A program made the position numbers and the translations under genes. From Actinomycetes bacterium (GTDB lineage Bacteria; Actinomycetota; Acidimicrobiia; Acidimicrobiales; VFJN01), in contig JANOQG010000382.1 in assembly GCA_031422255.1 (NCBI GenBank), positions 1 through 39,663 of the forward strand: a stretch of 39,663 nucleotides of DNA. Reading direction: 5' to 3'. Positions 36,349 through 39,663 of the stretch are shown one piece after another (within the stretch, counting starts at the first letter, position 1; each line of letters begins with the position of its first letter). The notes beneath the pieces are model-generated. The model made no database searches. It was given only the letters and a program-made list of their open reading frames with translations, and was not told where the DNA came from.

Positions 36349-36984
36349 TCACCCCAACGGGAATCCGACGACCTGCTCCAGCTCGCGAAGGGCGGCGGCG
36401 GGGTCCACGACCTTGATCGTCGTCATGCCCATCGCAGCGGCCGGCTTGAGGTTGACTCCCAGGTCATCGAGGAACACCGCCTCGGCGGGTGCAACGCCGC
36501 ACTGCTCGCAGGCCAGCTCATAGAACCGCGGGTCGGGCTTGCGCACGCCCACCTTGCTCGACTCGATGACGTGGTGGAACAGCCCGAGCACGTCGGCGCG
36601 TCCTGCATCCACGGTCTCGGACGGGAGGTCGCCGAATCCCACCCAGTTGTTGGTGAGGCAGGCAGTGACCAAGTTGGCCCGGCACCGGCGAACGGCCTCG
36701 ACCATCGTCGGACGGATCTCGCCCGCGAGCAGCGGCATGACCTCACGCGCCACCACCTGCTGCCCCGCAGCGCGACACTCAGCCTCGAACAGGTCACAGA
36801 ACTCGGGGAAGGGCACCTCGCTCCGCTCGAAGCGCGCCCAGGCGTTGACGTCCGGGTTGGTGGAGTTCACGGTTCGGATGAAGTCGATCGGCAGCCCGTG
36901 CGCGGATTCGTATCCGTTGAAGGCCTCGAACGGACTCGAGAGCACGACGCCGCCGAAGTCGAAGAAGGCCGCTCGGATGGTCAC
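36349..36984 (-). CDS. HAD family phosphatase (epoxide-hydrolase N-terminal-like)
   Basis: FFDFGGV, LTNNW, GVRKPDPRFY, FLDDLGVNL; GTG overlaps the upstream TGA (GTGA). Confidence 0.92.
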   Translation of the reverse strand: MTIRAAFFDFGGVVLSSPFEAFNGYESAHGLPIDFIRTVNSTNPDVNAWARFERSEVPFPEFCDLFEAECRAAGQQVVAREVMPLLAGEIRPTMVEAVRRCRANLVTACLTNNWVGFGDLPSETVDAGRADVLGLFHHVIESSKVGVRKPDPRFYELACEQCGVAPAEAVFLDDLGVNLKPAAAMGMTTIKVVDPAAALRELEQVVGFPLG

Positions 36985-38303
36985 GTCAGCAAGTCTGTGG
37001 CGAGGGCTTCCCACATCGACGTGCTGAGTTGCAGCGACTCGACATCGATCCGTTCATCGTCGCCGTGGAACATGGCGCCGTAGTCCTCGAAGGACAGGTG
37101 CTCAGAGAACAAGCCGAACCCGTACGAGGTCGTACCGAGGCGCCGGAAGAAGCGCGCGTCTGTCGCGCCAACTGTCATGAACGGGACGATCTTCGAACCC
37201 GCGTAGAAGTCCTGTGTGACGCGGCCCAGCGCATCCCACAATGGCGTGTCGATCGGAGAAGCCGTTGACGGGTCATCGGCGGATGCGAGGAGCTCGACCT
37301 TCGGAGCAAGGTCGCCCAGCGCTTCGTCGAGCATCGCTCGCACCTCGGTTTCGCCCTGACCGGGAAGCGTGCGGATGTCGAGTTGCAGGTCGACGCGGTC
37401 GGGGATGACGTTGATCTTCGTGCCACCGTGCGCGATGGTCGGAGCGAAGGTCGTGTGAGTGCATGCGTGGAACTGACGCCCCATGCCGACGGGTAGCTGG
37501 TCGCACGCGTCCATGAAGTCGGCGGGATTGAGCAACGGGCCGACGATCTCCTCTGGGTAGTCCATCCCCTCGAGGAACTGTCGCCAGATGCCGTGGATCT
37601 CGGTGCGAGGCTGGTACTCCGCGATCCTCTGCACGACGGCGGCGGCCGTCACGAGAGCGTTGTCCGTCTTGTAGGGCTGCGATCCGTGGCCTGGCGTTCC
37701 CATCACCCGCAATGTCACCCAGAAGCTGCCCTTCTCGCCCACGATCACGGGCAGCTTCAGGCCGGTGGGGCTGGGGATCGGGATGCCTCCCGACTCGGTG
37801 ATCACGTAGTCGGCCCGGATTGCGTCGGGCTCGTGATCGACGAGGTGCTGGGCTCCGAGGGAGCCAAGGGCCTCCTCATCGGCAACCGCGAGGTAGATGA
37901 GGGTGCCCTTGGGCCGAAAGGCACCGCGGGCGAGGTGCTTCACCGCTACTGCCATCGACGCGGTGAGGTTGAGCATGTCGACGGCGCCGCGACCCCACAC
38001 CTCGCCGTCGATGAGCTCCCCGCCAAAGGGGTCATGGCGCCAACCGTCAGGGTTCACGGGAACGACGTCCGTGTGCCCCATGAGCAGAAGCGTGGGTGCG
38101 TCCGGGTCGGTTCCCTCGATGCGACCGACAAGGCTCGTGCGACCGGGAGCGGGTTCATAGCGCTCGAGGTCGACGCCCGATCCTTCGAGGTAGGTCTCGA
38201 GAAGATCGGCACTCCGCACTTCGTGTCCCGACGTCGCGGTGCCGTCGTTCACGCACTCGTTTCGGATGAGTTGTTGCAGCAGATCGGTGACCTCGTCGCT
38301 CAT
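36981..38303 (-). CDS. M20/M25/M40 family metallopeptidase
   Basis: GHTDVVP, GRGAVDM, ADEE, GHGS, GATDAR, HGDDE. Confidence 0.94.
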   Translation of the reverse strand: MSDEVTDLLQQLIRNECVNDGTATSGHEVRSADLLETYLEGSGVDLERYEPAPGRTSLVGRIEGTDPDAPTLLLMGHTDVVPVNPDGWRHDPFGGELIDGEVWGRGAVDMLNLTASMAVAVKHLARGAFRPKGTLIYLAVADEEALGSLGAQHLVDHEPDAIRADYVITESGGIPIPSPTGLKLPVIVGEKGSFWVTLRVMGTPGHGSQPYKTDNALVTAAAVVQRIAEYQPRTEIHGIWRQFLEGMDYPEEIVGPLLNPADFMDACDQLPVGMGRQFHACTHTTFAPTIAHGGTKINVIPDRVDLQLDIRTLPGQGETEVRAMLDEALGDLAPKVELLASADDPSTASPIDTPLWDALGRVTQDFYAGSKIVPFMTVGATDARFFRRLGTTSYGFGLFSEHLSFEDYGAMFHGDDERIDVESLQLSTSMWEALATDLLT

Positions 38304-38426
38304 CGTTGGGACACTAACGGCGAGTGCGGGAAGTCATGTCGGCGACGACGAAGCTGGTGTTCGTGCGCAACTTTTCTCGCACCATCCTCCCGCGCGCGCA
38401 AAACGGATGCTTGACTTGCAAACCGG

Positions 38427-39663
38427 ATGGCTGTCAAGCACGTCGTGGTCGACGGATCCAACCTCGCAACAGAGGGACGCACCTTGCCGAGCTTGCAACA
38501 GCTCGACGAGGCAGTGCGCTCGTTCGTCGACGAATTCGGGCCGGTACAAGTCACCGTCGTGGTCGATGCGAGCTTCCCAAATCGCATCGATGCATCGGAG
38601 CGCGCCGCGTTCGAGGATGGCATCAGCGCGGGCGAGATGATCTCCCCACCCGCCGGAGTCATTGGTCGGGGTGACGCATTCCTTCTGCAGATCGCCGATC
38701 GGGCCGATGCAGTCGTGCTGTCCAACGACTCCTTCCAAGAGTTCCATGGCCAGTACGCGTGGCTGTTCGATCAGGGCCGCCTAGTCGGCGGCAAGCCCGT
38801 ACCCCACGTGGGTTGGGTGTTCATGGACCGTTCGCCGGTCCGGGGCCCGCTCAGCCGTCGATCCGTGAGTGATGCGAAGAAGGCCGCGGCGAAGAAGACT
38901 CCCGCGAAGGCCACCTCGGCGAAGGCCTCGACTGCCAAGTCCTCGCCAGGCAAACAAGCGGCAGCGGTGGCCTCGTCGACCAAAGCGCCCACCGGCCGTA
39001 CACCCAAGCGTGGCGCCAACGATGCAGCCCGCCGCGCCGCCGGTTCCAAAGGCGCTGCGGTGCTCGCGGCGTCGACAGGTGGCCGTACGCGTCAACGGCG
39101 CAGCGGGAGCGGTTCCGGCGGCGGAGTGGAGCCGTACAACGATGCGCTCCCGTTCATCGAGTTCGTCGGCGCACATCCCGTCGGCTCTGTCGTCTCCGGC
39201 GAGGTCGAACGATTCGCATCGCACGGCGCCTATGTCATGGCTGACGGGGCGCGGTGCTACTTGCCGCTCGCCCACTTGGCCGACCCGCCCCCTCGGAGCG
39301 CCCGCGAGGCGCTCAGCATGGGTCGGCCCTATGAGTTCGTGGTCCATGCGTTCGACACCCCGCGCCGCGGTGTCGACCTGACCATGCCTGGTGTCGTGGT
39401 TGTTTCGGCGGGACGTCCCGCCGCGGTGACCTCGGCTGGCGATCCCGTACACCAAACGAACAAGGAGGCACGGGTGGCACCTGCAAAGAAGGCAGCCAAG
39501 AAGGCAGTGAAGCGGAAGGCTCCGGCGAAGAAGAAGGCCGTAGCTCGCAAGGCTCCGGCCAAGCGGAAGGCTCCGGCGAAGAAGAAGGCCGTAGCTCGCA
39601 AGGCTCCGGCCAAGAAGAAGGCTGTAGCCAAGAAGAAGGCTCCGGCGAAGAAGAAGGCCGTAG
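38427..39663 (+). CDS. NYN/PIN (Zc3h12a/Regnase-like) ribonuclease + S1-like domain + histone H1-like Lys/Ala tail; truncated by the window edge
   Basis: Manual translation, open to the end: HVVVDGSNL, VVVDAS, GRGDAFLLQIA, VLSNDSFQEF; VGSVVSGEVERFASHGAYV...YLPLAHL; then (KAPAKKKAVA)n. Confidence 0.88.
   Translation, partial: MAVKHVVVDGSNLATEGRTLPSLQQLDEAVRSFVDEFGPVQVTVVVDASFPNRIDASERAAFEDGISAGEMISPPAGVIGRGDAFLLQIADRADAVVLSNDSFQEFHGQYAWLFDQGRLVGGKPVPHVGWVFMDRSPVRGPLSRRSVSDAKKAAAKKTPAKATSAKASTAKSSPGKQAAAVASSTKAPTGRTPKRGANDAARRAAGSKGAAVLAASTGGRTRQRRSGSGSGGGVEPYNDALPFIEFVGAHPVGSVVSGEVERFASHGAYVMADGARCYLPLAHLADPPPRSAREALSMGRPYEFVVHAFDTPRRGVDLTMPGVVVVSAGRPAAVTSAGDPVHQTNKEARVAPAKKAAKKAVKRKAPAKKKAVARKAPAKRKAPAKKKAVARKAPAKKKAVAKKKAPAKKKAV
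39406..39423. promoter_or_regulatory. Perfect 18-bp palindrome CGGCGGGACGTCCCGCCG inside the NYN-S1 gene
   Basis: Perfect dyad in the linker, about 50 nt upstream of the internal GTG; function unknown. Confidence 0.4.
39462..39476 (+). promoter_or_regulatory. Internal in-frame ribosome binding site AAGGAGG-N5-GTG
   Basis: Perfect Shine-Dalgarno preceded by A/C-rich ACACCAAACGAAC; GTG 39474 is codon 350 of the long ORF, at the start of the AKK tail. Confidence 0.65.
39510..39663 (+). repeat. Coding tandem repeat: two identical 51-bp units plus shorter variants (KRKAPAKKKAVARKAPA)
   Basis: 39510-39560 is identical to 39561-39611, followed by degenerate units to the edge. Confidence 0.9.

Follow-up and report, generated by a model that had tools for sequence, protein, structure and literature searches.

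Does the gene at the end of this contig specify one protein or two? The window, the whole stretch of DNA analysed here, is the entire contig C382 (39,663 nt) of genome bin G000 (68% G+C, 94.5%-complete), and it closes within an open reading frame (ORF) that joins a predicted ribonuclease domain and an S1 RNA-binding domain to a Lys/Ala-rich tail. A sequence-only reading of this DNA had suggested that the locus yields two products, the full-length fusion and a small histone-like protein translated from its own start inside the ORF. Two products from one locus is also our best reading, because the motif at the internal start is conserved at the nucleotide level and no stop codon precedes it; the histone-like character of the smaller product is not upheld. 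The boundary between linker and tail probably carries a functional in-frame internal initiation site, which would give a free basic protein beside the full NYN-S1-tail fusion.

Architecture of the locus

The ORF begins with ATG, with an in-frame TGA lying four codons before it, and continues without a stop to the end of the contig. Public annotations and gene callers report one protein here, named as a hypothetical, NYN-domain or S1-domain protein. The features of the locus are as follows.

38427..39662, plus strand: full-length ORF, open to the contig end at 39663, encoding NYN, linker, S1, short linker and tail
38436..38753, plus strand: predicted NYN (Zc3h12a-like, PIN-like) ribonuclease domain, aa 4–109, PF11977
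39174..39383, plus strand: S1 RNA-binding domain, aa 250–319, PF00575
39392..39437, plus strand: RNA hairpin with covariation in the hypervariable linker, core CGGCGGGAC/GTCCCGCCG, 37–82 nt upstream of the internal GTG
39444..39461, plus strand: A-rich, rare-codon tract CCC GTA CAC CAA ACG AAC, preceding the Shine-Dalgarno sequence
39462..39468, plus strand: Shine-Dalgarno sequence (SD) AAGGAGG, complementary to CCUCCUU of the 16S 3′ end, with AGGAGG at 39463–39468
39474..39476, plus strand: putative in-frame start GTG within the ORF (codon 350), placed 5 nt past the SD
39474..39663, plus strand: proposed second product, (M)APAKKAAKKAVKRK..., Lys/Ala-rich, with 63 codons in the window and at least 16 on contig C356

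Both domains pass the cut-offs of their Pfam profiles, NYN (PF11977) with 30 bits against 23 over aa 4–109, and S1 (PF00575) with 26.6 bits against 22 over aa 250–319. In PDB comparisons the NYN domain has a weak match to KHNYN (E 0.034), and the S1 domain matches a bS1 domain (E 1.6e-4). The first linker, between NYN and S1, is rich in Lys, Ala and Ser, while the second consists of 24 residues, after which the AKK-type repeats begin.

The contig ends inside an AKK repeat, so the tail in the window is cut by the assembly. The minus strand at the end of contig C356 reads ...PAKKKKAVARKATKKR-stop and supplies the last 16 codons of the tail. Past the stop lies an exonuclease III-like gene, which is also the neighbour found in homologues. 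With 63 codons in the window and 16 more on C356, the tail comprises at least 63 + 16 residues. The sequence-only reading placed the beginning of the basic tail correctly; the point at which the tail breaks off in the window is a 3′ truncation by the contig end.

At the boundary the DNA reads ...CACCAAACGAAC-AAGGAGG-CACGG-GTG-GCA-CCT-GCA-AAG-AAG, and AAGGAGG-CACGG-GTG (39462–39476) lies in frame with the NYN-S1 ORF at the start of the Lys/Ala tail, just as had been described. The 16S 3′ end is GGATCACCTCCTTTCT (...CACCTCCTTTCT) in two genomes of the same genus, G000's own 16S being unassembled, and it contains the canonical anti-SD. The boundary SD is complementary to this same-genus 16S 3′ end and stands at a working distance, with AGGAGG 5 nt before GTG. 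At the other end of the ORF, the full-length ATG has neither GGAG nor GAGG in the 15 nt before it, and the same holds for each of 21 genus homologues, which agrees with the earlier remark that this start has no clear SD.

Conservation of the boundary among homologues

Of 41 related genomes, 35 encode the NYN-S1-tail protein. A phylum-wide sample of 201 genomes contained it in 9, all of class Acidimicrobiia, and the same protein query returned no homologue outside that class in this sample. Named relatives belong to Microthrixaceae/Ca. Microthrix (the closest, at 73%), Iamiaceae, Rhabdothermincola, Ilumatobacteraceae and Desertimonas. After removal of duplicates, 120 loci gave a non-redundant set of 99 homologues. 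One genus sequence, L008 (from genome G003), duplicates the public record L037, and no claim depends on it.

A stop codon between S1 and tail occurs in none of the 99 non-redundant homologues, and no split forms were found among them, so the locus is one ORF and not two genes. Two sequences depart from the common architecture: L121 is tail-less, and the tail of L123 has 33 aa. The linker between S1 and tail varies from 15 to 123 aa across homologues, and the frame is maintained despite these large changes in length.

When 95 NYN-S1 regions are placed on a quick, arbitrarily rooted maximum-likelihood tree, they fall into a major clade of 70 rows and an Ilumatobacteraceae-type clade of 25. In the major clade the internal start is GTG in 47 rows, ATG in 5 and TTG in 1, with none in 17, and the motif is spread across at least five well-supported deep lineages. 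In the Ilumatobacteraceae-type clade the internal start is missing from 24 rows and is ATG in the remaining one. Both major clades of this class-wide family include members with basic tails. Because a whole clade carries tails without an internal start, the tail also has a role within the full protein, and the fusion is old and functional. The alternative offered earlier, a histone-like gene fused recently by loss of a stop codon, is therefore rejected: the fusion is class-wide and predates the families sampled.

One check that had been named for the internal start was conservation of AGGAGG-N5-(G/A)TG at the nucleotide level, and it is found: all 25 genus-level sequences carry the motif unchanged, synonymous sites included, and no stop lies before it. 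The genus codon alignment (21 sequences, median nucleotide identity 73%) shows how far the boundary departs from the rest of the gene. Specifically, the junction has 7 conserved degenerate columns (CCC GTA CAA GAG CGG GTG GCA), every one of them a single-codon column, as against 29 of 174 elsewhere, and among columns of 4-fold or higher degeneracy the counts are 5 of 5 and 8 of 116. The codons CCC, GTA and CAA of the upstream tract are among these single-codon columns. In the same alignment the major codon ends in A or T in 3 of 7 junction columns against 3 of 174 elsewhere, and the non-preferred codons GTA, CAA, ACA, GAA and GCA are invariant within the genus.

Beyond the genus, 55 of the 99 homologues have, downstream of S1, an in-frame start with a perfect AGGAGG 3–10 nt ahead of it, a count that overstates the number of independent events because the sequences are related. 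Such AGGAGG-start sites number 56 in the 17,955 codons downstream of S1 and 2 in the 33,929 codons of the rest of the ORFs; one of the 56 is spurious and lies in a frameshifted read-through. In L025 the motif is retained behind a frameshift of the assembly, which makes this the 56th homologue to carry it. The site always falls at the switch from a linker with 0.00–0.27 K+R to a tail with 0.25–0.47 K+R.

The internal start codon among the 55 is GTG in 48, ATG in 6 and TTG in 1. In the same genes GTG makes up 40% and GTC 47% of Val codons, and TTG makes up 11% of Leu codons, whereas GTC encodes the start-position Val in none of 48. Where the spacing is 5 nt (52 sites), the SD opens with the codon GAG in 44 cases, AAG in 7 and CAG in 1, so that the residue varies among E, K and Q and -AG stays constant; the second SD codon is GAG and the third begins with G in all 52. 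Codon +2 is NCA in 44 of the 52; Pro is encoded at codon +3 in 38, and 36 of these use CCA or CCT. When only non-genus sites are counted, ACA accounts for all 14 Thr codons and CCA plus CCT for 22 of 24 Pro codons, against background frequencies of 10% for ACA, 11% for CCA and 8% for CCT at a GC3 of 0.81. The codon columns, the set of start codons and codons +2/+3 indicate that conservation of the SD, the spacing and the start exceeds what the peptide needs. The non-genus lineages mostly read GCC GAG GAG GCG CCG GTG, a run of preferred codons, and for this reason that stretch is not independent of peptide conservation.

The remaining 44 of 99 homologues, including 24 of the 25 in the Ilumatobacteraceae-type clade, lack the perfect motif, so the tail also works in cis without it.

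RNA structure and genomic background of the site

Predicted RNA structure, averaged over 25 homologues in 40-nt windows, is weakest at the internal start, with a folding energy of −5.5 kcal/mol compared with roughly −12 to −14 elsewhere, and is strong just upstream, at −17 for position −60. The dip in structure is shallower among 30 non-genus homologues, where it measures −6.6 at −30 compared with about −11.

The hypervariable linker encodes a hairpin. Among the 16 genus sequences whose linker is long, pairing holds in 92.2% of cells, compared with 81.0% in shuffled controls (0 of 500 reach the observed value) and 37–62% in controls with a slid partner strand; compensatory changes are seen at 8 of the 11 base pairs in the inner helix. 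The 9 short-linker genus sequences have a smaller hairpin at the same place, with two covarying pairs. In other families, rare-codon nucleotide blocks (GAAAnCCnnCAC; TGnTAnA; GCAGACC) are conserved before the SD, and the upstream region of the non-genus homologues yielded no consensus fold. The covarying hairpin, together with the conserved blocks in other families, points to selection on the RNA beyond the SD itself.

Several other candidate elements were considered. A scan of 38300–39663 found no sigma-70-type promoter, and the window has no match to an Rfam family. The TGnTAnA block of other families was rejected as a promoter, as the final T of the −10 box is absent. A stem enclosing the SD (CCCGU/ACGGG), proposed by RNAalifold, never covaries and is broken in L006 and L007. 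Pairing between a CCUCC hairpin loop in the 5′-UTR and the internal SD was likewise set aside: it shows no covariation, and variants with CCCCC keep AGGAGG.

How unusual is such a motif in this genome? AGGAGG occurs 45 times in the window, mostly within genes, against 22.7 expected, and AGGAGG-N5-GTG occurs 3 times against 0.37 expected, a number that none of 100 shuffles reaches. The SD at the boundary is not unique. In the whole genome there are 3,217 AGGAGG sites, and an annotation-free test gives no spacing peak before ATG or GTG; with no peak, this test cannot rank the internal SD against real gene starts. Among 860 crudely defined starts, a set that includes shadow ORFs, about 16% have GGAG or GAGG at −16 to −4, against 10–11% in controls, and a perfect 6-mer SD is rare, at about 11 of 860. 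G000 is a weak SD user, and because the organism makes little use of SDs, being the best SD in the window is in itself no argument. The rarity of perfect SDs at starts is compatible with strong translation from the internal site, should it be used. Taken alone, the internal site is only mildly above chance, and its significance comes from conservation in homologues, not from rarity in a single sequence.

Alternative explanations and known systems

In the arrangement that we favour, the elements would act in the order 5′ to 3′ as a linker hairpin, a little-structured A-rich rare-codon tract, a perfect SD, a 5-nt spacer, the GTG and the codons GCA CCT. Ribosomes starting at the internal GTG would release a free, very basic protein, and we infer that such initiation occurs.

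The frozen nucleotides could instead serve some other RNA-level role that yields no separate protein, such as an SD-like pause aiding S1 folding, hairpin-linked mRNA processing or stability, or a programmed frameshift signal. The covarying hairpin just upstream, the conserved nucleotide blocks elsewhere in the family and the weak use of SDs at ordinary starts in this genome all fit such a role. We nevertheless regard it as improbable, since neither a pause nor processing needs an in-frame GTG, ATG or TTG at a fixed spacing of 5 nt (or 8 nt) or A/T-ending codons past the start, and the lack of an Rfam match adds to the case against it. Frameshifting is further disfavoured because, judged by dnaX/prfB-type criteria in the codon alignment, there is no conserved slippery heptamer and no in-frame stop after the SD, and because the sequences past GTG vary (GCA CCT GCA AAG or ACA CCA GCA AAG). 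We consider it about as doubtful that the linker is an in-ORF mRNA control region, composed of hairpin, A/U-rich rare-codon tract and SD, through which the tail becomes a gene expressed in its own right, with the NYN-S1 RNase perhaps binding or cutting its own mRNA at the hairpin and so releasing or stabilising a tail-only message. If so, the level of the RNase would be coupled to that of a nucleoid- or RNA-coating basic protein.

Conservation might also belong to the peptide. A motif D-Q/H-x-A/T-E-E-A/E-x-V-A/T/S-P-x-K-K, acting in the full-length protein, perhaps as an acidic patch or cleavage site ahead of the basic tail, would leave the SD-like bases as a by-product, and both its conservation across families and the preferred codons (GCC GAG GAG GCG CCG GTG) in most non-genus lineages agree with this. 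Such an origin is hard to reconcile with invariant non-preferred codons in a genus at 73% median nucleotide identity, with a first SD codon that changes between E, K and Q and keeps -AG, with start-position V, M and L encoded only as GTG, ATG and TTG (GTC for none of 48 Val), or with rare, A/T-ending codons +2/+3 across families, and we hold it to be quite unlikely. Least probable by far is that the locus comprises two ordinary genes, with a real stop before the SD and a single ORF that is an assembly error or a recent fusion. The contig does end in a repeat, and assembly frameshifts do occur in or near the gene (L025; L009, L058 and L089, which read into the next gene), but the S1-tail stop is missing from all 99 homologues, which come from many assemblies, the linker varies in length and stays in frame, and tails are found in both major clades.

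Internal in-frame starts are known in a handful of model bacteria, usually through ribosome profiling only, and classic cases are the infB forms of IF2, clpB, cheA and arcB. Genome-wide maps of internal starts have been reported for E. coli by retapamulin Ribo-seq (bioRxiv 10.1101/520783) and for M. tuberculosis (PMC9094748). Internal starts that give C-terminal proteoforms are thus an established kind, to which the NYN-S1 case adds a new example: within a longer ORF it has an in-frame start preceded by its own SD, and the short product would correspond to the C-terminal part of the full protein. Unlike the known cases, the NYN-S1 site is known from sequence comparison alone, is conserved across several families of an order, has a covarying hairpin and a rare-codon tract within coding sequence, and would release a low-complexity Lys/Ala tail instead of a folded domain. 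A limited search of the open-access literature found no paper on the NYN-S1-tail family or its internal start.

The window protein resembles NYN (Zc3h12a/KHNYN-type) RNases and S1 proteins in that both Pfam profiles pass, and differs from other NYN/S1 proteins in its NYN-S1-basic-tail architecture, found only in Acidimicrobiia in the 201-genome phylum sample. By comparative means alone, the order-wide case for internal initiation is strong in the uncultured-rich Acidimicrobiia, which include relatives of the sludge-bulking Microthrix. If correct, it adds to their genomes an unannotated, probably well-translated, Lys/Ala-rich protein predicted to bind nucleic acid. It also illustrates that a "disordered linker" can be shaped by the needs of the RNA (hairpin, rare codons) rather than those of the peptide, and it offers a clean test system for SD-led initiation within a genome that otherwise uses SDs little.

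In sequence the proposed short product equals the tail of the full-length fusion; it would comprise at least 79 aa here, and 56–154 aa in complete genus homologues, with about 45% K+R. It would most likely bind nucleic acid non-specifically, as a nucleoid- or RNA-associated protein, and most likely act beside, or compete with, the tail of the full-length RNase. Lys/Ala-rich tails are known in bacteria from mycobacterial HupB/MDP1, Streptomyces DdbA and topoisomerase I. The AKK/PAKK-type repeats and the roughly 45% K+R are shared with bacterial proteins and tails called "histone H1-like" (HC2, HupB/MDP1, DdbA). The likeness to HC2 (PF07382) is compositional: the protein stays below the HC2 cut-off (14.4 bits against 40), with the match at aa 149–218, in the first linker and outside the tail. 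The term "histone-like" used in the sequence-only reading therefore describes composition only, and the precomputed PF07382 labels on some longer homologues reflect composition as well.

Three to four RNA runs contained 5–6% of the sequence words, and their contigs match only the AKK repeats (38837–38934 and 39474–39663); in the three RNA runs compared, these contigs carry many mismatches and joins and derive from many organisms. Two other ORFs of this genome, one topoisomerase I-like and one phasin-like, carry C-terminal AKK tails; SD and start codon are absent from both of these junctions, at one of which the Val is encoded by GTC. A DksA/TraR zinc-finger ORF of the same genome carries its AKK region at the N terminus.

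The region 5′ of the full-length start and the first linker

The NYN-S1 gene is flanked upstream by a divergent ORF and by two short nucleotide blocks, and its NYN and S1 domains are joined by a low-complexity linker.

Features around the 5′ part of the NYN-S1 gene
36981-38303, minus strand: 440-aa ORF, divergent with respect to NYN-S1; M20-family peptidase-like on visual inspection
38372-38392: conserved nucleotide block TTGCACCATCCTCCGGTG, upstream of the full-length ATG
38405-38417: conserved nucleotide block CTGGTTGACTTGC, upstream of the full-length ATG
38865-39146: Lys/Ala/Ser/Gly-rich first linker, between NYN and S1

Both blocks are kept in homologues of the same genus, and an in-frame TGA located four codons 5′ of the ATG falls within the second. 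The first block can be drawn as a possible small hairpin with an anti-Shine-Dalgarno-like loop, CCUCC. A Shine-Dalgarno sequence ahead of the full-length ATG is absent from 21 of the 21 genus-level sequences. The first linker, which contains a weak HC2-like Pfam match (aa 149-218), is highly variable among homologues in both length and sequence.

Blocks ahead of the internal start in other families

In the loci of other families (L061-L083), the blocks GAAAnCCnnCAC, 'TGnTAnA' and 'GCAGACC' are kept ~25-75 nt 5′ of the internal start, and are made up of rare A/T-ending codons (GTT GCT ACA ACT...). In some of these sequences 'TTGCTAC' can base-pair with a 'GTAGCAA' further 5′; across these loci, the region ahead of the internal start yielded no consensus fold.

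The 3′ end of the gene and frame breaks in homologues

The missing 3′ end of the NYN-S1 gene corresponds to the last ~50 bases of C356, another contig of the same genome bin (L004:1495-1547, minus strand), which reads ...PAKKKKAVARKATKKR-stop, and the assembly gap between the two contigs falls within the AKK repeats of the basic tail. Beyond the stop, C356 carries a 265-aa exonuclease III-like gene ('VTWNVNSLKAR...'), which is also what lies downstream at homologous loci. At homologous loci L009/L039, L058 and L089 the tail frame stays open and enters the exonuclease III gene downstream in a frame other than that gene's own, which produces read-through ORFs of 774-934 aa, and L025/L060 carry a frameshift within the NYN-S1 gene. 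These frame breaks are probably indel errors in repeats. On the tree, the NYN-S1 gene of L086 (record title: Gammaproteobacteria bacterium MAG) branches within the Ilumatobacter group, a placement suggesting that L086 is a mis-binned contig.

Other Lys/Ala-repeat proteins of the genome bin

Further Lys/Ala-repeat proteins are present in the bin, on contigs C244, C363 and C430.

Lys/Ala-repeat ORFs of the bin, with families named by eye, without profile search
Topoisomerase I-like, 896 aa: C-terminal AKK tail
DksA/TraR-type zinc finger, start MATKAAAKK...: N-terminal AKK region of ~90 aa
Phasin-like, 153 aa: C-terminal AKK tail
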